Shown here in pieces: positions 1-19,951 of a stretch of 32,000 nucleotides of DNA. Below the pieces are notes generated by a model. That model did not search any database. It was not told where the DNA came from and was given only the letters and a program-made list of their open reading frames with translations. The translations under genes and the position numbers were made by a program. The stretch covers positions 321,953 through 353,952 of the forward strand of contig JBASWV010000006.1 of the NCBI GenBank assembly GCA_049276655.1, written 5' to 3'. Each line of letters opens with the position of its first letter. Within the stretch, counting starts at the first letter, position 1. The stretch is from Candidatus Nitrosotenuis sp. GTDB taxonomy: Archaea > Thermoproteota > Nitrososphaeria > Nitrososphaerales > Nitrosopumilaceae.

Positions 1-581
1 CCAGAGTTGAAGGGAGGATTTTGCTTGACGGCCAAGACCTCTACTCAAAGGATGTCGATCCTATATACCACAGGCGCAAAGTAGGCATGGTATTCCAAAA
101 GCCAAACCCCTTTCCCACAATGTCGATTTATGACAATGTCGCAGCTGGCCTGAAACTAAACGGCCTCAGAGACAAAAAGATCCTAGATGAGATAGTCGAG
201 GATTCGTTGAGAATGGCATACATCTGGGACGAGGTAAAAGACGATTTGAAAAAGCCGGCAATGGAGCTTTCTGGCGGCCAGCAGCAGCGAATCTGTATTG
301 CGCGCGCCCTTGCTATCCAGCCGGAGGTTCTCCTAATGGATGAGCCAGCGTCGGCGCTGGACCCGATTGCGACCCAGAAAATCGAAGAAACGATCACAGA
401 GCTTGCAAAAGAGTTCACAATAATCATAGTAACGCACAACATGCAGCAGGCAGTACGGGTTTCTGACTATACTGCGTTTATGTACCTTGGAGACTTGATA
501 GAATTTGACGAGACACGAAAGCTGTTCACGCAGCCAAAAAACGAGCTGACTGCAAAATACGTAAAGGGGCAGTTTGGATAA
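1..581 (+). CDS. pstB: Phosphate ABC transporter ATP-binding protein PstB (5' end outside window)
   Basis: Frame is open to position 1. Translation shows the ABC signature LSGGQQQR, Walker [12 protein letters not shown] and H-loop VTHNM. phoU follows directly, as in pst operons. Confidence 0.9.
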
Positions 582-582
582 A

Positions 583-1233
583 ATGACGCGCCTCATCGAT
601 CCGTCCCTTAGAAAGCTTTCTTTGATAATGTCTGAAATGGGTGAACTTTCCTTACAATCGTTTGTGCTTGCCATAGACTCTTACATTTATGGGAAAAACA
701 CCGTAAATGAGGTTCGCGACATTTCAAACGAGATTTCAAAAAAATACTTTCAGGTTGCGGATTTGACGTTTGAGATTTTGTTGAAATATCAGCCAGTGGC
801 AGATGATTTCAGGCTGATTCGTTCATCAATAGAAATTTCTTATGGCTTTTCTAGGTTTGGTAGATACGCGTACGATATCACTCAGGTCAGAGATATGTTC
901 GGAGACATTTCCGAATGCGACAAGAGTTGGCTTGTCGAAGCCTCAAATAAGGTAAAGGCCATGATCAAGGATTCTGTGATATATTTTGCAGAGCTTGACA
1001 TCAGAAAAGCCATCACCATACAGCAAAATGAGGAGTTTGTCGACAGACTCTACAAGGAACGCCTTCCCATGTTAATTAACTCAAACAATACCAAGTGTGC
1101 CCTTGCTGAAGCCCTAGTATTGCGTTATCTTGAGAGAATAGCTGATCATGCCATATTCATGAGTGATGCAATCAATTATATAATAACTGGAAAACACAAG
1201 TTAGCAAAACAGTTTTTGACAAATGACTTGTAG
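583..1233 (+). CDS. phoU: Phosphate uptake regulator PhoU
   Basis: ATG 583 (TTG 574 is an alternative) sits at the pstB stop (579-581). Two PhoU-type repeats are present: QPVADDFRLIRSSIEISYGFSRFGRYAYDI and LRYLERIADHAIFMSDAI. Confidence 0.8.
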   Translation: MTRLIDPSLRKLSLIMSEMGELSLQSFVLAIDSYIYGKNTVNEVRDISNEISKKYFQVADLTFEILLKYQPVADDFRLIRSSIEISYGFSRFGRYAYDITQVRDMFGDISECDKSWLVEASNKVKAMIKDSVIYFAELDIRKAITIQQNEEFVDRLYKERLPMLINSNNTKCALAEALVLRYLERIADHAIFMSDAINYIITGKHKLAKQFLTNDL

Positions 1234-1310
1234 GCATACTACAGAGGCCACGTATTCATCAGAAAACTATTTTAGAAAACGTCTTTAATTTTTGAACCAC
1301 ATTACTTGTG

Positions 1311-1484
1311 TTGCCAGATGAAAGTTGTAGGAAATGTGGTGGAAGTTTGATCGATTATGCACGCTGTACTGAATGCAAGGGCATTCTACTTAAGATGTGC
1401 AAAAGATGTTGCAGTGTCATAATTCAGAACAGTCATGTAGAGTGTAGATTTTTTGATACCGGCGGATTCTCGATTACAAATTAA
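1311..1484 (+). CDS. Small Cys-rich zinc-ribbon-like protein (57 codons, below ORF-track cutoff)
   Basis: TTG 1311 (or in-frame GTG 1308) to TAA 1482-1484. Product is PDESCRKCGGSLIDYARCTECKGILLKMCKRCCSVIIQNSHVECRFFDTGGFSITN. Cys pattern is CxxC-x9-CxxC-x7-CxxCC-x10-C. It fills an otherwise empty 280-bp gap. Confidence 0.3.
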   Translation: MPDESCRKCGGSLIDYARCTECKGILLKMCKRCCSVIIQNSHVECRFFDTGGFSITN

Positions 1485-1511
1485 GTGGAGAGGACAAGAT
1501 CACAATCTAGA

Positions 1512-1793
1512 CTAGATTTCCTTAATGTAATTTGCAATGAATTCATAGAATAATGCAATTTTTGGCTGATCCAGCGCCATTGCGCCAGAGATCTTGCCGA
1601 GCTCCCGTTTTATTTTAAGCTGATCAGCCAAAATTTCTTCTAGTTCTGACCTGTCTTTTGTTTGAAGGCTCCTTACCAAAAAAGAGACCTGCGCCTCGAT
1701 TTTTCTTCTTAATTCGGAATCTGCAAGTGGACGCTTTTCAATTACTTGGCTGAAAGTAAAATTTTGCAGTACGATCATATTCAAATCAACCAT
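1512..1793 (-). CDS. Hypothetical small helical protein
   Basis: 93-codon ORF with an ATG start and charged, coiled-coil-like composition. No family recognised. Confidence 0.45.
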   Translation of the reverse strand: MVDLNMIVLQNFTFSQVIEKRPLADSELRRKIEAQVSFLVRSLQTKDRSELEEILADQLKIKRELGKISGAMALDQPKIALFYEFIANYIKEI

Positions 1794-1856
1794 GGATATT
1801 TTTTTTAAAGTTGATTTTATAAAATTATTCTAAAATTTCAAATTTGGGTAAATGCC

Positions 1857-2348
1857 TCAGAGCACTTCGGATGGCGTGTATTGTTTTTTGCCAATTCTGG
1901 CTAGTCTTTTTAATGCGCATGCAGCCGTTTCACTCACATAAGAAACTGGATCCTTTAGGGCTTGGTACATTGCGTCTTTTGATTCATGTGCCCTCATCAA
2001 GGCCAGGCACTCCAATGCTTCATGTCTAGCAATTGCGCTTTTGTCATTTAAGGCGGTATTGATGAGAGCGGGGATCTTTTTTCTCATATCTCTCGCTGCA
2101 ATTTGAAAACACGCCTCATGTTTTATGATACCATTGTCGTCATTTTCTAAAATCCAAGACATTAGGTCTGCTACTTCGTCAAAAATTGGATCAGACGTAT
2201 TTTCATTTGCAATTTCACCTGCTAGATATACGGTGTCCCATCTTTTTGATTCATCGGCATCGCTCTTTATGATAGATATGCATCTTTGCAGTCGTTCCCT
2301 TGGGGGAAGTTTTCTGAGATCATCATCATCCAGTATATCAAGAACCAT
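1857..2348 (-). CDS. HEAT/PBS-lyase-like repeat protein
   Basis: ATG at 2348. Repeated helical hairpins carry HEAT-like signatures (IIKHEACFQIAARD, IARHEALECLALM, VSETAACALKRL). Confidence 0.6.
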   Translation of the reverse strand: MVLDILDDDDLRKLPPRERLQRCISIIKSDADESKRWDTVYLAGEIANENTSDPIFDEVADLMSWILENDDNGIIKHEACFQIAARDMRKKIPALINTALNDKSAIARHEALECLALMRAHESKDAMYQALKDPVSYVSETAACALKRLARIGKKQYTPSEVL

Positions 2349-2515
2349 GGTTGCAATAAAGAATGAACCGCTGTTAATATTTCACACGGTATCACGGTGA
2401 GTTTCACGCGGCCGGATTTGAGCGTGCGTAATTAGGTGAAGCGTAAATAACGCATGTAAAATCCACAGCGGATGATGCCATGATTTGAGTCATATTTAGA
2501 ACCATGATGGTAGGT

Positions 2516-2526
2516 GGGTCTAGTGG
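2516..2526. repeat. Degenerate copy of the tRNA-Lys att core (gggtctagtgg), proposed outermost and oldest att remnant
   Basis: 11 nt identical to the centre of the 18-bp repeat at 5425-5442 and 10251-10268. It lies at the transition from host-like genes to AT-rich mobile-type genes. Confidence 0.35.
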
Positions 2527-2658
2527 CGTACGCGGGGGCGGTCGGCGGCGGCGCGTCCTGTTTTTTGACCGTTTAGTTTGCTGGTGTTGCAAGTGCCGCA
2601 GTTGCTGTAACTACAACTGTAGTTGTTGGTGAAATGTCATTACACACTCAAACATGAG

Positions 2659-2689
2659 TAAATAGTTATACTATTAGTATAACTATTTA
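2659..2689. promoter_or_regulatory. Perfect 31-bp palindrome (14-bp arms, 3-nt spacer), putative operator upstream of the wHTH gene
   Basis: TAAATAGTTATACT-ATT-AGTATAACTATTTA, verified base by base. Lies 38-68 bp upstream of ATG 2727. Confidence 0.5.
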
Positions 2690-2690
2690 A

Positions 2691-2717
2691 ATTAGTTATA
2701 TCAATAGTATAACTAAT
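2691..2717. promoter_or_regulatory. Second palindrome with the same half-site (10-bp arms, 7-nt spacer)
   Basis: ATTAGTTATA-TCAATAG-TATAACTAAT. It shares the TAGTTATA / AGTATAACT half-sites with the first palindrome at a 30-bp register and ends 10 bp before ATG 2727. Confidence 0.5.
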
Positions 2718-2726
2718 AGTGATATT

Positions 2727-3653
2727 ATGAGATGGGTTCCATCATGGTTAGCAAAATCCTGTGCTATAATGTATGTTGAGAAAGGGACGGCATGGTTTAG
2801 TTTTGCTGAAGCGAAAACTATTCTGGATATAAAAGAAAATAGCGTATTGTCGCTTCGTTTGACGAAACTCGAAGAATCTGGATTTCTGGTTGCTAAAAGG
2901 GATGCAATAGACAGGAGGAAAAAGTATTTCAGAGCTCTGAATCCCAATGATGTATTTTTTTCATATGGCATAGTATCGCTTTCTCAAACTAAAGATGTCA
3001 TGCAACGTCTGGTTATTGCATCAAAGAAAATTACATTTGTTATAGGAGGAGCTTATGCAGCATACGTTCATAGTGGATATTCAGTTCCGGGAAAAATCGA
3101 CATTTATATCAAGAACGAAGATCTGGATAGGTGCATATCTCTCCTTTCCGATAAGTTAACCGCTGTTTCAGTTGACGATATGCTAGCAGAAAAAATCAGA
3201 CAAACAAACTTCCATCTTCATTCAGCACTGACTGAAGAAATGTTAGAAGAGTTTGTAATCGTGGAAGGAATAAGGTATGAATCGCCTGAAAATCTAATAA
3301 TAAATGGATTAAAAGAGCAGTCTGATTTTTCTCTTACAGATTCCCTTTCAATATTGATTAAGAAAAGAAAAGATATTGATTTCAATAAAGTTTTGAAGAC
3401 TGCAAAGACTGAGATGTTAGAAAGAGAATTGGGTGCATCTCTAGAATTACTAAATCATGAAGCCAAGAAAAAGATCTTTAGCGACGAAACAATACGTAAG
3501 ATTCGCTCAAAAGTAGATTTGTCGAGAGAAAAGACTTTTCCCAAACACAAAAAAGAAAACGATGATTATCCCCACATAGGAGAAAAATGGAACCTACAGA
3601 TTACTTTGCCAAGGGCTTTTGTATCCAAGATCATTACTGATTTGGTGAGATGA
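2727..3653 (+). CDS. Winged-helix DNA-binding domain fused to a degenerate nucleotidyltransferase-fold domain (AbiEi-like position)
   Basis: N-terminus is MarR-like wHTH (LSLRLTKLEESGFLVAKRDAIDRRKKYFRAL). It is followed by ITFVIGGAYAAYVHSGYSVPGKIDIYI, a GG...DxD-type NTase motif with the second Asp replaced (DIY). Confidence 0.6.
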   Translation: MRWVPSWLAKSCAIMYVEKGTAWFSFAEAKTILDIKENSVLSLRLTKLEESGFLVAKRDAIDRRKKYFRALNPNDVFFSYGIVSLSQTKDVMQRLVIASKKITFVIGGAYAAYVHSGYSVPGKIDIYIKNEDLDRCISLLSDKLTAVSVDDMLAEKIRQTNFHLHSALTEEMLEEFVIVEGIRYESPENLIINGLKEQSDFSLTDSLSILIKKRKDIDFNKVLKTAKTEMLERELGASLELLNHEAKKKIFSDETIRKIRSKVDLSREKTFPKHKKENDDYPHIGEKWNLQITLPRAFVSKIITDLVR

Positions 3654-4390
3654 ATGGCCAACCCGAAACCAGAAGATGTTGAGCGTGAGAGCCTCAAAGA
3701 CCTCAAAATCATTATAGAAAAGGCGAAGAAATGGAGGGTTGAGACGGTAGTAATAGGAGGTTACGCAGTAAGGGCCTTACGAATGCCTACAGACATACAA
3801 AAGACATCGATATGGCTGTGGCAAAAGAGGAAAAGGGGAAATTTACTGCCCTTCTTAAAGGACTTGATTACGAGTTACGAGACACTGAATTCGGCCTTGC
3901 GGCAAGCAAAAAGTTCGACTCGGACTTTATAGATGTGCACATTAGCGTTGGAAAAATATATGATATTTCTACGGGCAATTCTTATCCCATTACAAAACAA
4001 TTATTCGATGAAAAGAATGATTTGCTGGTACGGTCTAGATATGATGACAATGGAAAGTTTGATACAACTGCACCAATAGTTGATTTGAATACTCTGATAA
4101 TACTCAAACTTATTCCAAAGGGAAGGCCTGAAAAGGATGCCATAGATATCAGTTCTTTGATTTTGGATCAGCGAGAGAGAATAGACATTTCAAAAATTGT
4201 AAAACAATGCAAAGAAACAAGACTCACTGATCACATACGATCTCAGATTCAAGAGTTTGCAAAAAAAGTAAACAACGGCAGTATGGATAGAGTATGGTCT
4301 GATGTTACGGGTGCAAGACTGGCTGGCGTTCAGAGACAAAGTATCCAGAAGTTTCTGAGAGAGTTAGACGGTAGCTTGAGAAATTCATAA
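3654..4390 (+). pseudogene. Nucleotidyltransferase-fold protein (AbiEii/DUF2204-like), split by a frameshift near 3771-3790
   Basis: ORF 3654-3932 gives ...VVIGGYAVRAL. ORF 3812-4390, read upstream in its own frame, gives YRHTKDIDMAVAKEE. Joined, they restore a GG-x-A...R-x-T-K-D-I-D NTase active site. The C-terminus has LIILKLIPKGRPEKDAIDISSL. Confidence 0.55.
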
Positions 4391-4460
4391 GGTATCTGAA
4401 CCCAAATGGGTCTGAGAACCGTCGGGCCCGCCATCTTTTAGGTATGAGCCCTGCTTATCT

Positions 4461-5423
4461 TTGCGAATTCAATATTTTATCATGAGTCAAAAGAAGTATC
4501 AGTATCTTCTAGAGGACAAAGACGTTAAACGATGGTATGAGAATAGGATGAGGGGTTCTTCTGTCACTGCGGATGTTTCTTTGAGGAGATTGGGTGCTTT
4601 TTGTGATGAAAATGACATAACGCCCACTAAACTCACAAAGATGGATGAAAAGGAGTTATTCGACCTTCTCTTGGATTTTGTTTCATCGTCTGAAAAGAAA
4701 GTCCATGCAGAAAGTTACATTTCGTCAATTATGAAGGCTATCAAATCTTGGTTAACGTTCAACCACAAAGAGATTAGAGGTAAGATCAAGATGCATGGGC
4801 AGGAGGATACTCCCTCTCTGAAGAATGAGAAGATTCCAAGTCAGGATGAACTAAAGAGAATACTACTTTCAGGTGATAAAAAGACAAGAGTTACTTGTGT
4901 TTTGATGGCCTATAGTGGAGTTCGTCCTGAAGTAATCGGGAATTATTATGGGAATGATGGACTTCGTGTCGGTGATCTTCCTGAAATTGAGATAAAGGAA
5001 GGCAAAGTTACGTTTGCCAAAACTCCGACGATGATAATTGTAAGAAATGAATTGAGTAAGACGAAGAATCAGTACATCACTTTCCTCAGTGAAGAAGGAT
5101 GCAGTTACTTGAAGGATTATCTTGAAGAGCGAATACTGGAAGGGGAGAAAATTGCTCCAGACGCTTTGATAACGGAAATGAAAAACGCGTTTCTGAGAAG
5201 CGAGGAGTTCCTTGATCTTGAAATCGAAACCGGACAAACACAGACGGAAAACATATCGAGGATAGAAGAGATTGTAACGTCATGTCTGATGAAGACGCAG
5301 GAAAGGTAGAAAGTTGCGACTCCGAAAGAAGTAGAACAACTAATCGAGGAAGGGTGGCAATATGTCGTGTTATTGCACAACGGAAAAGTCGTCGTCAAAA
5401 AACAGGACGCGCCGAAACCGTGA
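4461..5423 (+). pseudogene. Tyrosine-recombinase (integrase)-like gene, degenerate: in-frame TAG at 5307-5309, catalytic His/Tyr not identifiable
   Basis: Has a SAM-like N-terminal region, box I-like LMAYSGVRPEV, and SKTKNQYITFLSEEG (Lys hairpin). Only a weak box II (AFLRS) is present. TAG is followed in frame by KVATPKEVEQLIEEGWQYVVLLHNGKVVVKKQDAPKP, ending at TGA 5421-5423, 1 nt before the att core. Confidence 0.55.
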
Positions 5424-5424
5424 G

Positions 5425-5442
5425 AGCGGGTCTAGTGGGATT
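5425..5442. repeat. att core copy: 18-bp exact direct repeat of the tRNA-Lys 3' end
   Basis: agcgggtctagtgggatt is identical to 10251-10268. A further partial copy (cgggtctat) lies at 5460-5468. Confidence 0.65.
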
Positions 5443-5616
5443 ACCTTCCCCTGTGGGTTCGGGTCTATTAACGGCAGAGAGCCATTGTGGGGCTTAGAAT
5501 ACCACTATCAATTTTTTATCCATTAAGAATAAAAGATTTACATGCCGAAGGATTCCAGCAACTTATTCAAACAATTCATTACAATCTGTTTTGGTCTGTT
5601 CTGTTTCTTCTCTAAA

Positions 5617-5636
5617 CTGAACAATTTTTTGTTCAG
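5617..5636 (-). terminator. Hairpin downstream of gene 5667-6275
   Basis: CTGAACAA-TTTT-TTGTTCAG, a perfect 8-bp stem. Lies 30 nt past the stop. T-rich context. Confidence 0.3.
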
Positions 5637-5666
5637 GTTATCTTAATAGAAATAAAATAAAAGGGG

Positions 5667-6275
5667 TTATTTCCCTTGTTGCCCAGCAAACTCGCTGTTA
5701 ACACCATAAGGAAATTTTTCATTGTAGGCTTTGTCATCAATAATCTTGTACTTTCCAAACTCACCAAGTTTCACAAAGTAAGGATTAGAAATTCCAGGAA
5801 TGTTGCCTAATGCAGCATGTACAATTACCTCTTCCCCTTCCTCAAATGTTGCCTCAAAGGGTTGAATGTAGAATTTACCACCTTCTTTTATCGAGTCCAA
5901 GTATAAGGTGAAAACTTCTCCAGACTTTATCTTGCCCTTGTATGATTTTTCGACTAGAATCTCGACTGGTATTGAACCCTTCGTATTTCCAGCACTATCA
6001 GTCCATATTACTGGATCCCCAATACTGACGACCTTACCTTTTATGGTAATTATTACCTGAGCCTTGATGTCTTCGATATTGGTTGTGACAAGTGATATTT
6101 CGCCTGTTCCCTTTTGGAAAAGTGGATTGCTTTTTGAAATATCAGAGGGGATGTAAGGCGTTGGTGCATCTGCTAACATAAGCACGGCGTTGTAAGTATT
6201 TGGAGTAAACACTACAACTGCTGAAACAACAATAGCTGCTACTAACCCAAAAACCAAATAGTAATTTTTCTTCAT
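5667..6275 (-). CDS. Secreted or membrane-anchored hypothetical protein, co-oriented partner of the metzincin
   Basis: Hydrophobic N-terminal segment MKKNYYLVFGLVAAIVVSAVVVF followed by a beta-rich sequence. Its start lies 11 nt after the stop of the upstream gene. No family recognised. Confidence 0.55.
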   Translation of the reverse strand: MKKNYYLVFGLVAAIVVSAVVVFTPNTYNAVLMLADAPTPYIPSDISKSNPLFQKGTGEISLVTTNIEDIKAQVIITIKGKVVSIGDPVIWTDSAGNTKGSIPVEILVEKSYKGKIKSGEVFTLYLDSIKEGGKFYIQPFEATFEEGEEVIVHAALGNIPGISNPYFVKLGEFGKYKIIDDKAYNEKFPYGVNSEFAGQQGK

Positions 6276-6286
6276 TTCATTTACCT

Positions 6287-6904
6287 CTAGTATAGACCAT
6301 TGATTTGGTTTTTGTCGTCTATTTTTATGGCAGCATAGTCATTGCTACAGAAGCTTTTCATCATTGTATGTCCTGATGGAACAAGCCACTCATTGTTTGG
6401 ATGCTTAAGTCCAGCAAAGTGACCAAATTCATGATTCGCAATGAATCTTGGACTTACGTCTTGTCCTACAGTACATATGCTACTAGTGCTATAATTCTTG
6501 GCTCCATTATTATTGTACCATATTATCTTATACAAACTCGGCTGACCGACATTGAATGCCTGAGTAACACCATTGATGTTTGTATCTTGATAATATTGAG
6601 CACTTATTTGATTGTCGCCTGAATTACATACACTGTCAAATGCTATGTTGATGTCAGTGTTAGAATCCACATGCTGCCTTGCAACCTCAACTTCTGATTT
6701 TAATAAAGTGGCTTGGCCAGTTTGCCCATTTACCTTTACTGTTCCAAGAGCAGTCATTTGATAGCAAACAGACTTGTTTGCACTGCTAAATACATATTCA
6801 GTCGGAAGTGGGTGAGCTGCATAAGCACTGCTTGTAGAGATGCCCAACATGATGACAAATGTTGCTGCAAAGATTGTCTTTGTTTTGTTGTCGTACAAAG
6901 TCAT
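6287..6904 (-). CDS. Secreted zinc metalloprotease, metzincin (matrixin/M10-like)
   Basis: Signal-like N-terminus ending SSAYA. Carries the HEFGHFAGLKH motif (HExxHxxGxxH), a downstream Met-turn candidate GHTMM, and a C-terminal DDKNQINGLY resembling the matrixin DD..GI..LY ending. Confidence 0.7.
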   Translation of the reverse strand: MTLYDNKTKTIFAATFVIMLGISTSSAYAAHPLPTEYVFSSANKSVCYQMTALGTVKVNGQTGQATLLKSEVEVARQHVDSNTDINIAFDSVCNSGDNQISAQYYQDTNINGVTQAFNVGQPSLYKIIWYNNNGAKNYSTSSICTVGQDVSPRFIANHEFGHFAGLKHPNNEWLVPSGHTMMKSFCSNDYAAIKIDDKNQINGLY

Positions 6905-6951
6905 TGCTTTTTCCTACCTTCCTACGAATTAATAAGACGAACTCACAGTTA

Positions 6952-6972
6952 GTAGCTACGATCTGTAGCTAC
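6952..6972. promoter_or_regulatory. Two copies of the palindromic octamer GTAGCTAC, 13 bp apart, upstream of the metzincin gene
   Basis: GTAGCTAC at 6952-6959 and 6965-6972, plus a partial GTAGAT at 6978-6983. Lies 48-68 bp upstream of start 6904. Confidence 0.25.
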
Positions 6973-7010
6973 CGATTGTAGATAATGTTTATATCATTAG
7001 GATTTTTGTA

Positions 7011-7025
7011 CTGAAAATTTTTCAG
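7011..7025 (-). terminator. Inverted repeat downstream of the wHTH gene
   Basis: CTGAAAA-T-TTTTCAG, 50 nt past the stop of 7075-7371. Confidence 0.25.
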
Positions 7026-7074
7026 AAAATTAACTCGATTTGTTATTATGGATTTAAGCAATTTTGGGTACTAA

Positions 7075-7371
7075 TTACAAAACTTGTATAATAGATGAGT
7101 TTTTACGAATTTTTTCGTGGAATTTTAAAAGATGATCAAGTACTTCTCTGCCAGATTCTGTAAGGAAATACTCTTCGTCTTTTTCAATTGTTTTGCATTC
7201 CACATGCCCATTTTTAATTAATAGATCCATATGGCGCTCAAACGAGTGCCAGTTTGTTCTTGAGTAAAAATAAAGGCGTGTTTTTTTAATTGAATGGTGC
7301 GCGAACAGTGCATTTGTGAGCCTTACCATAATCTCCATGCCTATTTTTGATCTATTGGTTGCGTTTATCAT
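7075..7371 (-). CDS. Small winged-helix transcriptional regulator (HTH_45-like)
   Basis: 98 aa. Pattern HSIKKTRLYFYSRTNWHSFERHMDLLIKNGHVECKTIEKDEEYFLTESGREVLDHL matches small archaeal wHTH proteins. Confidence 0.6.
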   Translation of the reverse strand: MINATNRSKIGMEIMVRLTNALFAHHSIKKTRLYFYSRTNWHSFERHMDLLIKNGHVECKTIEKDEEYFLTESGREVLDHLLKFHEKIRKNSSIIQVL

Positions 7372-7653
7372 ATTATTTTCAGTTTCTTATCATTTCCAAG
7401 ACTGGTAACATGAATTCAGAAAATCAGTCTATAAAATGCTTGTGTATGTTTTCTCTTTTTACACTAGCTTTATGTAGATCAAAGGTAGGATTTAAGTATA
7501 GCACGTAATTCGTATTTATTTTATGTCTGATCCGTGGTACATTCTTCTATAACTTTCTTCAATGGAATCGTGATATAATCCTAAAGTACGAATATCGTCA
7601 TTTCCAATTCTGGCAGTTGGTATTTTTATAATAACCAAATCATCAAACGTTTG

Positions 7654-7935
7654 ATGGGCCTTCCAGTAAAGCAAGAAAAGCAAAGGAGCAAGAAAAGTAT
7701 CACTATAGAAAAGGGGATAGAGTCGGCCCTCAAAAAGATCCAGTCGCAGCTCATAATAAGCAGCGAGGGCTACTGGAGTCTCTCAAATGTGCTAAATATC
7801 GTGACTGCTGGAGGGTTAATTGCCTCAAAGAGGCTTGATCGGTCCGAATGGCAGAAGATAAGGGCTGCAGTGGAGCAAAAAAGGCTTGATTTTGACCACA
7901 AGGCAATCCAGGATTTGGCAAAAAAGATTGCTTGA
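7654..7935 (+). CDS. Hypothetical small protein, possibly ribbon-helix-helix
   Basis: ATG 7654 (TTG 7651 upstream). SITIEKGIESALKKIQSQLI looks like a beta-strand plus helix. Divergent from the wHTH gene. Confidence 0.4.
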   Translation: MGLPVKQEKQRSKKSITIEKGIESALKKIQSQLIISSEGYWSLSNVLNIVTAGGLIASKRLDRSEWQKIRAAVEQKRLDFDHKAIQDLAKKIA

Positions 7936-8069
7936 CATATTGATTTTTATCAGTTAACGACGGCATAAAGGCCTGTTCTGTTGACATAATGGATTCACTT
8001 TGAATAGACCACATCCTCGTCCCCATCCCCCTGCGTATAAATCTGACCGCTTATCTTCTTAGCATAACT

Positions 8070-8895
8070 TCATGCCTTTTTCACGTCTTGAAAAATCTTG
8101 AAAACTTTATACTGGCACATCTGGTCGCAGTTCATCTCGTCAGGATACACTATCTTGTTTTGTTTCAAGATCTCGTAGATAATCCTCTGGTGCTCGTTCA
8201 GCTTTGCGAGAAGGTATGAGAATCTGTACTTTCTTGCGAACTTCGACGCGGTTTTCACATCCTCGATTGTTATGGTATCACGATTCTGCATCTCCGCCTC
8301 CCGAGCCGCGAGCCTCAAAGTCTGAAGCCCGATCCTGGCGTCGCCGTTGCACATCCTGGCGACGAGTGAAACCAGTTCTGTTGAAACCGATCTTGGCTTC
8401 ATGCCATATTCGACTCGCTCCTTCAGTAAGTCAAAGACTTCATTGGCGCAGTAGGGCCTGAATTCTATTTCGTCGAGCAGCAGCCTGCTCTTGATCCTGC
8501 CGTCCATCTCTGCAAGGGAATAAGGCTCGTTTGAGATTATGACGAGGCCGCGCGAGTTTTTTCCACAGGTCGTAGAGAATGTCCGTCTCTTCCAGATGGT
8601 CGAACTCATCGAGGCAGATGATCCTCTTTTGTTTGATCTCGAACATTTTGACGAGCTCGCTCGTGGGTTCCTTTCCGTGGATGATGGTGCCGAACTTCTG
8701 GAGGATGTCCTTGATCACCGTGTGGAAGGTCATGTTTCTCCAGCAGTTTACGTAGACCGAGTTCTTGTCGAAATGCTCCTTGAGGATCCACCTTGTGACT
8801 AGCGTCTTTCCCACCCCGGTCTTTCAGCTTAAGGTTATCTCCGGTGGATTTCCGGTAGGGATTGATACATCAAATTCTTACTCTAGTTTAACCAT
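8070..8895 (-). pseudogene. Orc1/Cdc6-family AAA+ replication initiator, disrupted three times
   Basis: Walker A (S*KTGVGKT, where TGA 8824-8826 occupies the expected Gly codon). Walker B IICLDEFD. Also ISNEPYSLAEMDGRIKSRL, FRPYCANEVFDLLKERV, NGDARIGLQTLRLAAREAE and a C-terminal winged-helix remnant. In-frame TAA at 8878-8880. Frameshift in the T6/A6 run at 8557-8562. Confidence 0.8.
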
Positions 8896-9143
8896 CAGAT
8901 GAAATTAAATTTGAAGTTTTAGAACATAGACTATGATGTATCACAAAGTCAGAATTTTCCATAGGCGTTGAGGCTGGCTGAAAGGGAAAAACCAATTGCT
9001 TTAGGCCTCCTCTTCAGTAATGTTAAATATTCGTAATTTGTCAAAGTGGACAATAACATGACGGATAATTCGGTAGTAGTATTGGCTTGAAACCCTCCGT
9101 ATTTATCATAGGTAAGCAAATTAGTTAATGGAGGCTAACAGGT

Positions 9144-9641
9144 ATGTTGAGTAAAAGGATAGAGCAAAGCCTGTTTGATGAAAAGTTTAGAGAAACCTGC
9201 GTAAAAATACTCGACTCTGCACGCCATGAGATTTACATAATTGCAGGAGAGCTTGGTTCCCTGAAATTTTATGACATGAGAGAGGCGACTGAGCACGCTG
9301 CAAGACGTGGTGTCAAAGTACATGTGTATGCAACGAATCGAACGCCGGACACTTTCAGGAATTACTGCGTTTCGAGAGGCTATGAACTATTCATAGGGAC
9401 AGTGGGTCTGCCTACCCATTACCTGCTGGTGGACAGAGAAAACATGGTGATTTCAATGAATAAAAAACCTAACGAGGCAACGAAGGTGGGTGAAAGGGTG
9501 GGTGAAGAGCGCCATGGTGACAAACAAAAAGGAGAGGAAATATTGAAAATTTTCAAAGAGCGAATAAATGATAAAAATACCATCAAGATTACCGATTTCG
9601 ACAAGATGAAAGATCCATTCTACCAAGCAATTGCTCTTTAA
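9144..9641 (+). CDS. PLD-like domain protein with non-canonical HKD motif
   Basis: ILDSARHEIYIIAGEL...AARRGVKVHVYAT...THYLLVDRENMVISMN follows the phospholipase-D/nuclease-fold layout. The motif reads H-Y-L (Lys absent). Confidence 0.45.
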   Translation: MLSKRIEQSLFDEKFRETCVKILDSARHEIYIIAGELGSLKFYDMREATEHAARRGVKVHVYATNRTPDTFRNYCVSRGYELFIGTVGLPTHYLLVDRENMVISMNKKPNEATKVGERVGEERHGDKQKGEEILKIFKERINDKNTIKITDFDKMKDPFYQAIAL

Positions 9642-9649
9642 TCAAAAAT

Positions 9650-10117
9650 TTGTCCTTCGAAGATTTTCCATCACAAAATTCACCATTGGTTGATTCTGAT
9701 CTTCTGATAAGGAGATTTGTAGAGAATGACGTAGAGGCAAAGTCACGACTTAATTCACATTTGTCTAAATTAAATCTCAGTAAAAAAGAGTTTTTTATAA
9801 TAACCGATTATTGTCTAAATGATGTTCTAACCGCGGCAACAAAAAAAGGGATTTCACAAGTAGAAATAATCGAAAACCTACTTCCTCCATACACTGCTTA
9901 TTGTCACCTTTTTGTTTGTGGTTCAGGAATTTTCAAAAAATGCGCAGACAGTTTAGTTGAATTTCGGAAGTATGACCTTAGTTTAACTGATTGGGCAAAC
10001 TTGTGGGTCATGGCTATGGAGGGTTTCAAATTGCTCATTTCCGACAAGACGAAAATTGATAATGTCTTAATTGAGCCTAGACTCGCAAATGATTTTGGCC
10101 ACATTAAGCGAGCATGA
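9650..10117 (+). CDS. Hypothetical protein (TTG start), same frame as the downstream integrase-tail remnant
   Basis: 155 codons starting 9 nt after the PLD-like gene. No family recognised. Its TGA (10115-10117) is in frame with the tail ORF 10118-10237. Confidence 0.4.
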   Translation: MSFEDFPSQNSPLVDSDLLIRRFVENDVEAKSRLNSHLSKLNLSKKEFFIITDYCLNDVLTAATKKGISQVEIIENLLPPYTAYCHLFVCGSGIFKKCADSLVEFRKYDLSLTDWANLWVMAMEGFKLLISDKTKIDNVLIEPRLANDFGHIKRA

Positions 10118-10237
10118 GTCAAAATCAAGATCAACTTCCTTGCGACATTTTCAATCGAAACATCACCCATGATTTCTAGCGGATGGATTTTCGTCGGAAC
10201 ATTTCCTAACGGAAAGGTCGTGCTGCAAAAGGATTAG
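10118..10237 (+). pseudogene. Integrase 3'-terminal coding remnant of element B
   Basis: ...FLATFSIETSPMISSGWIFVGTFPNGKVVLQKD* aligns with the tail of the element A integrase (VATPKEVEQLIEEGWQYVVLLHNGKVVVKKQD). The aligned Asp codon lies 16 nt before the att core in both copies. Confidence 0.5.
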
Positions 10238-10250
10238 CACCCAGAGTGGA

Positions 10251-10268
10251 AGCGGGTCTAGTGGGATT
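10251..10268. repeat. att core copy overlapping the 3' end of tRNA-Lys
   Basis: Identical to 5425-5442. It covers 2 nt downstream of the tRNA, then the discriminator, the acceptor 3' strand, the T-stem 3' strand and 3 nt of the T loop. Confidence 0.65.
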
Positions 10269-10341
10269 CGAACCCACGACATAAGGATGTCTCCAAGTAA
10301 TTTTAAGAGTCCTTCGCTCTACCTGGCTGAGCCATAGACCC
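10253..10341 (-). tRNA. tRNA-Lys (anticodon CUU) with a 15-nt intron at the canonical 37/38 position
   Basis: Folded by hand: acceptor GGGTCTA/TAGACCC, D arm GCTC-AGCCAGGTA-GAGC, anticodon arm AAGGA-CTCTTAA-TCCTT. The anticodon arm is interrupted by AAATTACTTGGAGAC (10289-10303). T arm GTGGG-TTCGAAT-CCCAC, discriminator G. No encoded CCA. Confidence 0.85.
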
Positions 10342-10413
10342 TAGAGCAAGACACGCTTGCGAGGTTATAAAATCATAGCGCGCGTGCACAAAACCGACAG
10401 GATATTGAAAAGC

Positions 10414-11076
10414 CTAGTTCGTAGTCTTGGCTTCGATTTCGTTGTATTTTTCCAGAATTGCCGTCAAAACAGTAGACACCGGCACGTTGTTCATCTTCTT
10501 TTTCTCTGCCAGAAGCTTCTGGTATGCATCAAGCGTGATGTATACTGGGATGGAGCCATTTCCTTCAAGCAGGCCCTTTACCTTGTATAGGGCGCTTTCC
10601 ATTCCCCTTTCTGCAGACTTGGCAAACTTGATTTTGCTCAAAAAGCCGCCTAGTGGGCCAAATGGCATCTCATAGTTTACGGTCATGGTAACGTTGGTGA
10701 GTCTTTCCGACTTTGGAGTAAACTCGGTTGCGATGTCCCAGCTCTTGAATGGCCCGCGGGTCATTTTTGCTGCGATTCTTCTTTCCCTTTCGAACTCGGT
10801 CGTCTCGCAGTCCCATTCCAGTCTCTTTCCGCCAAAGTCGCCTACAATTCTGAATGTGGTGCCTACGCCCATCCCGTCTTTGATCTCCATTGGGATGACG
10901 GTCATTGCGACGCCTTTTTCGGTCATCTGATCGGACACGTGTTCCGGTCTTGCAAAATACGTAAAAACTGCGTCAATTGGTGCTTTGATGTCAATTGATT
11001 TTTTGACTCTAGTCAACGATTGGGCTTTTTCCAAGTCTGCATTTAAAGCTTTTGTCATTTTCCGAAAAAGAATCAT
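10414..11076 (-). CDS. SRPBCC (START/Bet v1-like) domain protein with C-terminal ribbon-helix-helix-like tail
   Basis: KAPIDAVFTYFARPEHVSDQM... has a typical SRPBCC layout. The last ~45 aa (IPVYITLDAYQKLLAEKKKMNNVPVSTVLTAILEKY) look like strand-helix-helix. Start is uncertain: ATG at 11133, 11076 or 11058. Confidence 0.6.
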   Translation of the reverse strand: MILFRKMTKALNADLEKAQSLTRVKKSIDIKAPIDAVFTYFARPEHVSDQMTEKGVAMTVIPMEIKDGMGVGTTFRIVGDFGGKRLEWDCETTEFERERRIAAKMTRGPFKSWDIATEFTPKSERLTNVTMTVNYEMPFGPLGGFLSKIKFAKSAERGMESALYKVKGLLEGNGSIPVYITLDAYQKLLAEKKKMNNVPVSTVLTAILEKYNEIEAKTTN

Positions 11077-15805: not shown

Positions 15806-17070
15806 ATAAAGATAATAGTGAACTTGCTATCGTACAAGTACAATAGTTTCTTCCTGCTTCCTTGATCTCTGAGAGATCTCTACAGGCGTAACTTCCCGCA
15901 GTCCCTGCGGTAGGCTTGATTTGATTTCAAAAACTTTCAAACCTTTTTTGAGAATGTTGATTGCAGCGTTATGATCTCTGTCCAAAATCAATCCACAGAC
16001 ATTGCAAGTGTGAATCCTTGTGGCTAAAGATTTTGGTGTAGGATAACCACATCTTGAACAGTCAGTGGTTGTATTTTTTGCAGGAACCTCAACCAACATG
16101 CATTTGTAGGCAAGCATTTTGGTAAACATACCCCACCCAGAATCAAGAATATTTCTCGCTAGATGATGATTTTTCACCATGTTTAATTTTGCCAGTCTTT
16201 CAACAAATACAATATCATGATTTTTTGCATAATGCGTTGATAATTTGTGTAAAAAGTCCTTTCTACGGTTTTTAATTCGTTCGTGGATTATTTGATACCA
16301 TTTTACAGCTTTTTTTCTGTTGTTTGATCCTATTTTTCTTCGGGATATTTTTCTCTGAATTCTTGCCAGGGGTTTTAGCAGTTTTTTCAAGTTTAGTGGA
16401 TTTGGTGTCACGTAACCATTTGAGTCATATGCAAAATTCCTAATTCCTACATCGATTCCAGTTGATTTTGTGATATTGATTTTTGGTAGATTTGAATCAA
16501 TATCGCACGTGATACACGCATACCATTTTTCTGATTTTGATTTTGTTACTATGATTTGTTTGATTTTTGCATTTTCGGGAATATTTCGATGTTTTCTAAT
16601 TTCCACAAACCCAATTTTTAGCAGATGTAATAGATCGGCATTACCATGTTTTACTACGTCAAAACCGGATTGATTGTATGTAAATGTGCGATAATCATTA
16701 TACTTGACAAACTTGAGAGCCCCTGTGTTGTGACCATTTTTATGTAAAGATGCCAGTGCTTTTTGTGCTACAGCAATCTGTGTTGATACCATTTGAAGCA
16801 TTTTGGAGTGATAATCATATAACCAATGTTCTGATTGTTTTAGCTCAGTTAAAAAATAATTCAGATCGTTTCGTGAGGAATATCCGTTTTTGTGTATTGT
16901 CTCCACCATTTTGTTGTAAACCCAACGACATGCATCTAAATTCTCTTGTAGTTTCTTTGCTTGATCAGAGTTTGGATATAAACGGAACTTGAAGTTTTTT
17001 GTCTGCATTGTACAGGATTTAGTTTTTTGTAGTTTAAAACGTTAATGTTTGAAGAATAGTTCTCCATTAT
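15806..17070 (-). mobile_element. IS200/IS605-family tnpB-only element (IS1341-like); boundaries approximate
   Basis: A full-length tnpB without tnpA is wedged between the divergent phosphatase and F420/NADP-reductase genes. AT-rich. Ends could not be defined from a single copy. Confidence 0.5.
15827..17008 (-). CDS. tnpB: TnpB (OrfB) RNA-guided endonuclease-type transposon protein
   Basis: N-terminus KFRLYPNSDQAKKLQENLDACRWVYN. RuvC residues in GIDVGIRNFA, VFVERL and DRDHNAAINI. Zn finger CSRCG...CNVCG. Confidence 0.9.
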   Translation of the reverse strand: MQTKNFKFRLYPNSDQAKKLQENLDACRWVYNKMVETIHKNGYSSRNDLNYFLTELKQSEHWLYDYHSKMLQMVSTQIAVAQKALASLHKNGHNTGALKFVKYNDYRTFTYNQSGFDVVKHGNADLLHLLKIGFVEIRKHRNIPENAKIKQIIVTKSKSEKWYACITCDIDSNLPKINITKSTGIDVGIRNFAYDSNGYVTPNPLNLKKLLKPLARIQRKISRRKIGSNNRKKAVKWYQIIHERIKNRRKDFLHKLSTHYAKNHDIVFVERLAKLNMVKNHHLARNILDSGWGMFTKMLAYKCMLVEVPAKNTTTDCSRCGYPTPKSLATRIHTCNVCGLILDRDHNAAINILKKGLKVFEIKSSLPQGLREVTPVEISQRSRKQEETIVLVR

Positions 17071-19876: not shown

Positions 19877-19951
19877 GGACTCGTAGCACAGTCTGGATAG
19901 TGCGGGCGGCTTCGGACCGCCAGGTCGAGGGATCGAAGCCCTCCGAGCCCT
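19877..19951 (+). tRNA. tRNA-Arg (anticodon UCG)
   Basis: Hand fold: acceptor GGACTCG/CGAGCCC (A3-C70 mismatch), D arm GCAC-AGTCTGGATA-GTGC, anticodon arm GGCGG-CTTCGGA-CCGCC, T arm GAGGG-ATCGAAG-CCCTC. Confidence 0.75.

Follow-up and report, generated by a model that had tools for sequence, protein, structure and literature searches.

Tandem integration at tRNA-Lys has already been described in the genus Candidatus Nitrosotenuis. Krupovic et al. 2019 (PMC6563490, Table S2) listed NitAQ6f-E4 and NitAQ6f-E5, a tandem pair in Ca. Nitrosotenuis sp. AQ6f that occupies tRNA-Lys(CTT) and has AGTAGCGGGTCTGGTGG and TAGCGGGTCTGGTGGGAT as its att sequences. In this phylum, att sites down to 8 bp in length have been published. 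As judged from the published listing, the locus described here shares with that pair its genus, its target tRNA, the stacking of two elements, the class of 'cryptic integrated elements' and att sequences close to AGCGGGTCTAGTGGGATT; the published elements are 16 and 24 kb long, whereas those here are decayed, measure 2.9 and 4.8 kb and retain one chimeric integrase and one integrase tail.

The integrase family of this locus, as seen in its intact members, resembles the pNOB8 type ('classical', type II) in carrying the motif R..YxxR..Y (consensus quoted from the review PMC8371274). As in that type, integration leaves the integrase gene undivided and attP lies at the stop codon or just beyond it, which we observed at three related loci (L001, L007 and L012). 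Unlike pNOB8-type integrases, the sequences are very divergent, falling below threshold or finding no match in Pfam and NCBIfam, and they have about 100 extra C-terminal residues. Identity between att sites is 12-16 bp here, as against 40-50 bp in Sulfolobales pNOB8 elements (PMC8371274). Integrases of the SSV type ('suicidal'), in which attP lies inside the ORF and integration splits it into int(N) and int(C), were ruled out: the reading frames stop at the core, and none of the cores is followed by a piece of integrase.

A tandem array at the 3' end of tRNA-Lys(CUU)

The window, the whole stretch of 32,000 nucleotides that was analysed, comes from Candidatus Nitrosotenuis, an ammonia-oxidising archaeon in which both elements described below are now immobile on their own.

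Positions 2516-10268 very probably form a tandem array of two cryptic integrated elements, A and B, at the 3' end of tRNA-Lys(CUU), both of which would have entered by site-specific recombination through a divergent tyrosine recombinase of the 'classical', pNOB8-like kind (motif R..YxxR..H..Y). The main features are:

2516-2526, + strand: core0, distal att junction of A, GGGTCTAGTGG
2527-5424: element A, 2.9 kb
5425-5442, + strand: core1, A/B junction (18-mer)
5443-10250: element B, 4.8 kb
10251-10268, + strand: core2, tRNA-proximal att (18-mer)
10253-10341, - strand: tRNA-Lys(CUU), intact, with an intron at the canonical position; the attB target (Rfam 61.4 bits and sequence)

A scan of the window confirmed the exact 18-bp repeat noted in an initial sequence-only reading: the 18-mer AGCGGGTCTAGTGGGATT has exactly two copies, core1 and core2, even with three mismatches allowed (0.01 expected by chance). 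The second copy forms, as had been claimed, the 3' end of an intact tRNA-Lys gene, which Rfam recognizes with a 17-nt insert in the anticodon loop. Core2 takes in the discriminator and the 3' strands of the acceptor and the T-stem, together with 2 nt of trailer on one side and 3 nt of the T-loop on the other. Read by eye, the anticodon is CUU and the intron follows position 37; the same intron is present in the tRNA-Lys of relatives with an empty site (L036, L037 and L039). ARAGORN called this gene Phe(aaa), a miscall that arises from the intron.

All three cores lie in one orientation, and the array consists of two direct-orientation units with att cores between them, and each unit is separable, A being absent in L013 and B in L007. 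The units sit at a tRNA 3' end between short direct repeats and carry integrase sequence but none of the hallmark genes of viruses or conjugation; Pfam, PHROGs, NCBIfam and PADLOC detected no genes for capsid, terminase or conjugation. Logan contigs from another sample reproduce window positions 1591-7457 and 7662-10870 at 100% identity, and all three junctions are thereby confirmed outside this assembly. GC content is 0.390 in A and 0.395 in B. The enclosed DNA is thus more AT-rich, as first proposed, than the outside mean of 0.455 (minimum 0.412 for 2.9-kb windows), but not than the stretch just left of core0 (1445-2515), which is equally low at 0.393.

The coding tails belong to a divergent tyrosine-recombinase family

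Each copy of the 18-mer is preceded by a coding tail. The two tails are homologous, have an Asp codon 16 nt ahead of the 18-mer and differ by five synonymous changes, all as originally reported. We put this similarity to a formal test by searching all 1178 six-frame peptides from the window with a profile built from the 44 C-terminal residues of the integrase family. Both tails were significant, with E=3.9e-14 for tail A and E=1.3e-6 for tail B; the best of the other peptides scored 0.69. On the strength of these alignments, the tails represent the genuine C-terminal end of a divergent family of tyrosine recombinases about 420 aa long. Full-length homologues have 418-428 aa and end in ..QKVV..GW.[FY]V..L.N.K..V.., with G396, W397 and V400 invariant in 30 sequences. 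The catalytic residues R162, K206, Y285-x-x-R288, H315 and Y323 are invariant in 30 intact homologues.

The family profile matches XerA (5hxy, E=3e-4), and an AlphaFold model of the intact integrase P0011 (pLDDT 79) has the two-domain recombinase fold, matching XerA, IntI, Cre, Tn1549 Int and lambda Int in Foldseek with probability 1.00. Sequence and model together identify the family as tyrosine recombinases, with catalysis predicted. In the AlphaFold model, the extra C-terminal residues end in a small strand-helix-strand-strand module. The intact integrases of the P0011/P0008 type that we searched have no Pfam or NCBIfam match at thresholds, P0002 scores below threshold, and precomputed Pfam Phage_integrase matches exist for some other homologues only. 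No relatives of the family were found in IMG/VR. The window encodes no complete catalytic domain (A lacks the box II Arg, the His and the Tyr, and B has a tail), and the family HMM found no other integrase fragments in it.

The sequence-only reading had suggested searching for intact relatives of the tail peptide. We found intact homologous integrases abutting the same tRNA at five loci (L001, L007, L012, L021 and L023). Intact integrases at this tRNA adjoin the same SRPBCC, CtaA and COX genes. The integrase stop codon lies 2 nt before the 18-mer in L001 and within the core in L012; in L007, the integrase abuts the same intron-containing tRNA. Together with the tail profile and the strain variant L013, described below, these relatives support the original proposal of two decayed, serially integrated elements, each ending in an integrase C-terminus followed by a core.

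Junctions and attachment sites

The left boundary and the attP arms comprise:

1857-2348, - strand: HEAT-repeat gene (Pfam HEAT_2), flanked by the native trailer and by the conserved promoter block of orf93
2466-2515, no strand assigned: native tRNA-Lys 3' trailer, host side of attB, now 7.7 kb away from the tRNA
2527-2569, + strand: A-type attP arm (P' arm), GC-rich, including IR-R (2549-2569); 100% identical to the L001 distal arm
5394-5414, + strand: IR-L, inverted repeat arm within the last integrase codons (VKKQDAP)
5443-5467, + strand: B-type attP arm; contains one half of an inverted repeat (5445-5458) and, at 5460-5467, a second CGGGTCTA

The trailer shares 82-84% identity with the DNA that immediately follows tRNA-Lys in L020, in L034 and at the proximal site of L015, and the '..TGGTAGG/C' flank is found again beside the tRNA in L019, L020, L022, L028 and L034. 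Immediately to its right, window positions 2516-2562 match L001 positions 7618-7664 at 100% over 47 bp, and this is the distal junction of the intact L001 element; the core0 junction is also present in L098 and L099. Judged by this alignment, core0 is a normal A-type junction whose short identity is set by the A-type attP arm. The 11-nt core described earlier at 2516-2526, GGGTCTAGTGG, is therefore present but not degenerate, and the proposed decay of core0, with core1 and core2 being refreshed, is incorrect for all but one base: T at 2515, where relatives carry C, looks like the sole later substitution at core0. Similarly, the partial core noted at 5460 is real as a sequence (5460-5467) but is part of B's attP arm rather than a separate att scar; the 8-mer CGGGTCTA occurs three times in the window against 0.25 expected, and the B arm is 100% identical in L013.

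Both elements have inverted repeats at their ends. In A, a perfect 21-bp repeat pairs IR-R with IR-L, and IR-L is the same nucleotide for nucleotide (100%) in the tails of L001, L007 and L021, within coding sequence that is otherwise 69-87% identical. The reconstructed A attP folds into a hairpin of -54.4 kcal/mol (z=-4.4). In B, a 14-bp repeat (12/14 complementary) pairs 5445-5458 with 10239-10252 around an 18-nt centre.

These features suggest how the elements would have integrated. The integrase gene ends just before attP or a few bases into it; once the element is integrated, the final codons of that gene therefore lie against the att core at the element's tRNA-proximal end. The A-type attP shares 12 bp with the tRNA 3' end (CGGGTCTAGTGG) and the B-type attP 16 bp (CGGGTCTAGTGGGATT), each identity stretch being flanked by element-specific inverted repeats that are putative binding sites. 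Each integration would rebuild a functional tRNA and leave a usable core, which would allow another element with matching specificity to join. Scans of viral and metagenome contigs found no free or circular attP of either type.

The left boundary is backed by the trailer homology, yet the HEAT-repeat gene just past it has no homologue in any of 80 related loci. An empty site with the HEAT-repeat gene adjoining the tRNA had been predicted; no relative shows one, and in the empty sites of L029, L037 and L039 tRNA-Lys is followed directly by orf93.

Gene content and decay of the two elements

Element A contains:

2727-3653, + strand: cargo ORF, 308 aa (ORF list)
3654-4390, + strand: two overlapping cargo ORFs, 92 and 192 aa
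4482-5423, + strand: chimeric integrase pseudogene, 314 codons, three-quarter length, with an in-frame fusion at 5150-5161

The 308-aa ORF has no match at threshold in Pfam, NCBIfam, PHROGs or PADLOC and is absent from the 80 related loci. The 92- and 192-aa ORFs look like one frameshifted gene. The 192-aa ORF has an 87% homologue in L018, adjoining a truncated integrase at tRNA-Lys, and this is the only homologue of any A gene among the 80 loci.

Element A had been thought to keep an integrase tail alone; it proved to retain the 314-codon pseudogene, which joins an N-terminal part of P0002 type (84% identity to P0002, 40% to P0008) to the C-terminal 88 aa of a P0008/P0011-type integrase (89% identity to P0008, 29% to P0002). 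Family HMM positions of about 230-310, the second half of the catalytic domain with the second Arg, the His and the nucleophile Tyr, are missing, and the gene carries one stop codon, an in-frame TAG at 5307-5309. Element A probably descends from a two-integrase element with a P0002-type gene upstream of a P0008/P0011-type gene, as in L007 and L012. A deletion over roughly 12 bp of imperfect homology would then have fused the two genes in frame and taken out the second half of the catalytic domain, and a C-to-T change would afterwards have created the stop codon. Module exchange by recombination between tandemly integrated archaeal elements is described by Redder et al. 2009, in the account given in PMC8371274. 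Set against that account, the case here is alike in that neighbouring integrase genes recombined into a hybrid gene, but differs in that the product is a dead in-frame fusion over short imperfect homology and not a functional mosaic element.

Element B contains:

5667-6904, - strand: 202-aa ORF and 205-aa matrixin-like metalloprotease (ORF list and Pfam)
7075-7371, - strand: winged-helix regulator, 98 aa (Pfam HTH_45 1e-7; PHROG transcriptional regulator)
8070-8814, - strand: Cdc6/Orc1-like AAA+ pseudogene, frameshifted, N-terminally truncated, GC 0.49
9144-10117, + strand: cargo ORFs, 165 and 155 aa, no family assignment
10160-10237, + strand: tail B, last ~25 codons of a P0008-type integrase and stop; rest of the gene deleted

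By eye, the 202-aa ORF has a putative hydrophobic N-terminal segment. The 205-aa protein matches Pfam Peptidase_M10 (3e-5, 24.4 bits against a cutoff of 24) and, weakly, an NCBIfam serralysin family. The Cdc6/Orc1-like pseudogene matches Cdc6_lid (8e-14), AAA_22 and PHROG profiles. With the winged-helix regulator and the integrase pseudogene of A, it is the basis for describing the enclosed genes as typical of mobile elements, since most of the cargo could be assigned to no family. None of the B genes occurs in the 80 related loci, and exact protein from the 9144-10117 region was recovered elsewhere only in L015 and L016. Tail B keeps only family HMM positions 401-424, and its region shares 82% identity with the stretch of L007 that covers the integrase tail and the junction with the tRNA. 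B would have become immobile on its own through loss of its integrase except for about 25 codons; since we found no relative of B with an intact integrase, its former autonomy is deduced from the tail alone.

Strain variants and the order of events

In the strain variant L013, the host flank (98%) is joined straight to the B arm (100%) at the core1 point. Because the host flank joins B directly there, element A is missing exactly between core0 and core1. The L015 strain likewise has B and lacks A, and it contains a third, integrase-less unit, C. B may thus have integrated first, giving host-core-B-core-tRNA as in L013, with A arriving later in B's distal att rather than in the tRNA-proximal core. 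We regard this order as a serious candidate, at somewhat less than even chances. Both strains show B without A; only one event per lineage is required provided that Z and B are shared, with A and C being specific to their lineages; and B's integrase is more degraded than A's, although how much has been deleted is a poor guide to age. L013 would be explained equally well, and in a single event, if A had been precisely excised from an A-B array at a time when an integrase was still active. Conservative recombination yields identical junctions whichever element came first, and the order of arrival therefore cannot be read from the junctions.

It is rather unlikely that at least three integration events took place, either because A represents two elements (P0002-type and P0011-type) whose boundary was deleted or because the HEAT segment (about 1845-2515) is an older remnant. 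The chimera joins two integrase families that are only 29-40% identical, and the L015 strain has its third unit; yet L007 and L012 have neither a core nor an attP arm between their two integrase genes, which favours a single two-integrase element as the ancestor of A. For the HEAT segment, an older insertion would fit its low GC content, the absence of the gene from related loci and the empty sites, where tRNA-Lys is followed directly by the orf93 promoter block that lies just past HEAT in the window. Against it, the 50 bp left of core0 are native tRNA trailer, and the far end of the HEAT segment has no recognisable core remnant.

The alternative that tRNA pieces were copied, or the assembly is faulty, and that the tails are ORF ends arising by chance, as the short att cores (11-18 bp) and the metagenome-assembled origin of the window might suggest, is effectively refuted by the Logan contigs, the significance of both tails against the family profile and the intact integrases at the homologous position in relatives, and repeats below the assembly k-mer length should, from the way assemblers work, create no false joins.

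Implications

In Streptococcus, accretion arrays at tRNA-Lys(CTT) combine integrative elements with integrase-less, cis-mobilisable elements (the ICE/CIME model); these arrays are bacterial and conjugative, and the model has been shown experimentally. The present locus is similar in that one tRNA 3' end is re-used by tandem units with att sites between them, some of the units being without a working integrase. At this locus, mobilisation in trans is only a possibility. A broader view, which we consider unlikely and offer as speculation, is that the site is a population-level accretion platform, where units (A, B and the integrase-less C), whether or not they carry an integrase, are added, excised and intercalated at any core by an uncharacterised integrase clade in which one attP inverted-repeat arm lies within the integrase's last codons. 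If this were true, expression or binding of the integrase could be governed by whether the element is integrated or circular.

The conceptual gain is small, as tandem tyrosine-recombinase elements at tRNA genes are well known and the site has been listed in this genus since 2019. The locus is of value as a clean case with clear limits: it has att sites and arms, strain variants that carry or lack a unit, and two integrase genes fused in frame. It also draws attention to an integrase family that is widespread in Nitrososphaerota and Bathyarchaeia and largely missed by standard profile libraries. In the genomes of ammonia-oxidising archaea, it singles out tRNA-Lys(CUU)/SRPBCC as a hot spot where variable DNA recurs.

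Att cores and the tRNA-Lys target

A sequence-only reading of this DNA proposed that two decayed elements had integrated serially at the 3' end of tRNA-Lys(CUU). Our analysis shows that the array is real and that this interpretation is correct in its main claim. Its parts are as follows.

2516-2526: core0, the leftmost att core
2527-5424: element A
5425-5442: core1
5443-10250: element B
10251-10268: core2
10253-10341, minus strand: tRNA-Lys(CUU), with core2 as its 3' end

The 18-mer AGCGGGTCTAGTGGGATT, claimed to be an exact direct repeat, lies at 5425-5442 and 10251-10268, and allowing up to three mismatches adds no further copy in the window (chance expectation 0.01). It spans two trailer bases, the discriminator, the 3' acceptor strand, the 3' T-stem strand and three T-loop bases. 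The tRNA that ends in the second copy scores 61.4 bits in Rfam and carries a 17-nt insertion in its anticodon loop; read by eye, its anticodon is CUU and an intron follows position 37. Because of the intron, ARAGORN labels the gene (10252-10341) tRNA-Phe(aaa). A tRNA-Arg(tcg) called by ARAGORN at 19877-19951 is not listed in the Rfam gathering-threshold scan.

The core copy proposed at 2516-2526 is likewise present, as GGGTCTAGTGG, but it is not the decayed 18-mer that it was taken for. In a relative (loci L001-L006) whose flanking SRPBCC, CtaA, cupredoxin and COX genes are ~70% identical in nucleotide sequence, an intact 418-aa integrase stops 2 nt short of the same 18-mer at tRNA-Lys(CTT), and the 3.6-kb element has its distal end at AGCGGGTCTAGTGGCGTA. 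This distal junction and window positions 2516-2562 match at 100% over 47 bp. We therefore conclude that core0 is an authentic, normal distal junction followed by a conserved attP arm. The A-type attP has only 12 bp in common with the tRNA end, and the sole sign of decay in core0 is a T at 2515, the discriminator position, where relatives have C.

The integrase family behind the tails

The coding tails preceding both full cores read as they had been reported. ORF 4461-5309 has 282 codons (275 aa when counted from its ATG at 4482) and shares its frame with the tail at 5310-5420, a single TAG separating the two. With the joined sequence as query, we recovered ~366 homologues, mostly 418-428 aa long and several annotated as site-specific integrase; one, from a Ca. 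Nitrosotenuis MAG, is a 100% match. All of them end in ..QKVV..GW.[FY]V..L.N.K..V.., and the tail is therefore the real C-terminus of the family. A profile built from the last 44 residues of the family was run against all 1178 peptides from six-frame translation of the window. Tail A scored 3.9e-14 and tail B 1.3e-6, the next best peptide reaching 0.69; the homology claimed for the two tails thus holds. The full-length family HMM found no further integrase fragments in the 32 kb.

The family belongs to the tyrosine recombinases. R162, K206, Y285-x-x-R288, H315 and Y323, together with the tail residues G396, W397 and V400, do not vary among 30 intact members. The family profile matches archaeal XerA (5hxy, 3e-4; 4a8e, 1e-3), and the AlphaFold model of P0011, a homologous integrase from a relative (pLDDT 79), matches XerA, IntI, Cre, Tn1549 Int and lambda Int. 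The motif R..YxxR..Y is the one quoted for pNOB8-type integrases (PMC8371274). Against Pfam and NCBIfam, intact members gave no match or sub-threshold matches only, and a family-profile scan of IMG/VR found no relative. An SSV-type split integrase was considered, since an integrase fragment reads into each core; we rejected it on finding stop codons at the core and, by the family HMM, no C-terminal integrase part after any core.

Element A is a separable unit with a chimeric integrase

The N-terminal 225 aa of the A integrase are 84% identical to P0002 and 40% to P0008/P0011, all integrases from relatives, whereas its C-terminal 88 aa are 89% identical to P0008, 85% to P0011 and 29% to P0002. 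On these identities, the A integrase is a chimera of a P0002-type N-terminal part and a P0008/P0011-type C-terminal part. At the DNA level, window 4320-5161 tracks the first integrase of L007 and 5150-5442 tracks the tRNA-proximal integrases of L007 and L001, the switch from one to the other falling within ~12 bp that match imperfectly. The reading frame runs through the fusion, from which the segment with RPYVLRS, WMGHKG and ENRY is missing; the extra stop is a CAG-to-TAG change where P0008 has Q. Two integrases occur at the same site in L007, which shares the intron-containing tRNA of the window, and in L012, an NCBI MAG that shares the flanking genes. In both, a P0002-type integrase lies ~1.7 kb upstream of a P0008-type integrase adjoining the core, and neither has a core between the two. 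In the simplest reading, a deletion of ~3 kb inside an L007-like two-integrase element would have produced the A integrase fusion. We looked for the att site of a P0002-type integrase around P0006 (L008-L011) and found no tRNA and no convincing flanking repeat.

The Logan contig L013, which carries the exact HEAT protein of the window, matches window 1445-2526 at 98% identity and then passes directly to window 5426-5507 at 100%. The order in this strain is therefore host trailer, core, B arm, and what is missing between core0 and core1 is precisely element A (2527-5424). In another sample, contigs L014 and L016 show the window arrangement with 100% identity across all three cores. We found no support from PADLOC, Pfam or tblastx for a defence or toxin-antitoxin identity of the A cargo among window genes; an AbiEii gene lies upstream of the integrase in L012. 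Just upstream of the first A ORF (2727) are two adjacent AT-rich palindromes (2659-2715; 15-nt arms 100% complementary, 26-nt arms 88%), putatively operator-like in look.

attP anatomy

Element A contains a perfect 21-bp inverted repeat, 2549-2569 in the arm pairing with 5394-5414 in the integrase codons VKKQDAP; in L001 the distal-arm repeat is 14 bp. The coding arm shows 100% nucleotide conservation in L001, L007 and L021 and the codons around it 69-87%, a pattern that suggests a cis-acting site overlapping the integrase coding sequence. For the reconstructed A-type attP, the predicted hairpin has a folding energy of -54.4 kcal/mol (z=-4.4). Element B has a 14-bp repeat (12/14 complementary) directly flanking an 18-nt centre, CGGGTCTAGTGGGATTAC; a stable hairpin for the reconstructed B attP was rejected, as it was no better than shuffled sequence (z=-0.04). 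An extra CGGGTCTA at 5460, just beyond the B repeat (three copies in the window against 0.25 expected), we read as part of the B arm and perhaps a further, putative binding site. Exact-pattern scans for free attP forms with both arms gave no match at all in viral contigs; in metagenome contigs the B arm had no matches and the A arm three, every one a distal junction.

Element B

The exact 18-mers delimit element B; L013 fixes its left end, and the tRNA and L015 its right end. Of the B integrase, just the last ~25 codons are left. The other contents of B are as follows.

8070-8814: Cdc6/Orc1-like pseudogene
Winged-helix regulator
Matrixin-like protease
Several unassignable ORFs

No homologues of B genes were found in 80 related loci. 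The Cdc6/Orc1-like pseudogene has a GC content of 0.49 against 0.37-0.39 in the rest of B, which suggests a different origin, from the host or from another element.

The left boundary

The sequence-only reading predicted empty sites with the HEAT-repeat gene beside tRNA-Lys. A genome scan with the SRPBCC protein as query gave 80 loci, none of which has a HEAT gene homologue; the predicted arrangement was therefore not found. Empty sites (L029, L037 and L039) instead show SRPBCC, tRNA-Lys, 10-15 nt, a conserved promoter block and then a homologue of orf93 (window ORF 1512-1793). The 50 bp left of core0 are 82-84% identical to the sequence directly after the tRNA in L020 and L034, and the flank TGGTAGG/C is common beside tRNA-Lys in relatives; we therefore place the end of the att-delimited array at core0. 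The HEAT gene is either a host gene or an older insert. That the 50-bp block is an older element's end is less likely, since it directly follows the tRNA in L020 and L034, with ordinary-looking genes next; as a C/D-box small RNA it shows no proper boxes by eye.

Collinearity with the close strain L013 and with the empty-site locus L037 does not extend into window 1-1445 (PstB, PhoU and a zinc-ribbon ORF at 1308-1484); beyond orf93, both have a 211-aa ORF, a methyltransferase, an aminotransferase and an amino-acid kinase. The breakpoint falls at ~1445, inside the zinc-ribbon ORF; either the locus was rearranged here or the MAG contig is chimeric. L099 has a homologue of this ORF immediately next to an A-arm-type distal junction.

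Elsewhere in the window, synteny with L001 breaks between 15627 and 17117 at an islet with a GC content of 0.34.

15827-17008, minus strand: TnpB/OrfB_IS605 gene, 393 aa (Pfam OrfB_IS605, 1e-20; Cas12f1-like TNB; HTH_OrfB)

Order of events and turnover at the site

Under conservative recombination the junctions are identical whether A or B came first. The L013 arrangement may reflect integration of B without A, precise excision of A, or later intercalation of A at the distal att of B. The L013/L015 strain also has a further unit, C, which has no integrase and lies between tail B and the tRNA, showing continuing turnover at the site.

L015 2597-6064: unit C, 3.5 kb (sample SRR22372584 strain), with one ORF of 794 aa, whose N-terminal segment is hydrophobic, and one of 153 aa that is largely hydrophobic

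At the left junction of unit C the core lacks TA (AGCGGGTC joined to GTGG), and on the tRNA side the unit ends in another copy of the native trailer, with 91% identity to L020. Other occupied loci have two cores (L017, L019) or three (L063), and integrases or their fragments also occur in L018, L021 and L023. In L063, a Nitrosopelagicus single-cell genome, the tRNA-Lys cores lie at 10747, 17200 and 19373, downstream of the same SRPBCC gene, and no integrase of the tail-related family was detected; this locus is likely a two-unit array.

Comparison with known elements

In Thaumarchaeota, Krupovic et al. (2019) catalogued 74 integrated elements, 57% of them at tRNA 3' ends, intron-containing tRNAs included (PMC6563490). 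Att sites there are as short as 8 bp, most elements are "cryptic integrated elements", and arrays of tyrosine-recombinase elements form, according to the authors, by re-use of the site (PMC6563490). Two of these elements, NitAQ6f-E4 and NitAQ6f-E5, lie back to back at tRNA-Lys(CTT) in Ca. Nitrosotenuis sp. AQ6f, within 999916-1039881 of NZ_CP024808, and their att sequences are AGTAGCGGGTCTGGTGG and TAGCGGGTCTGGTGGGAT (PMC6563490 Table S2); this is essentially the same site and the same arrangement as in the window. The chimeric integrase, the inverted repeat within integrase codons and the strain-level modularity are worthwhile details, and no surprises, of this kind of array.
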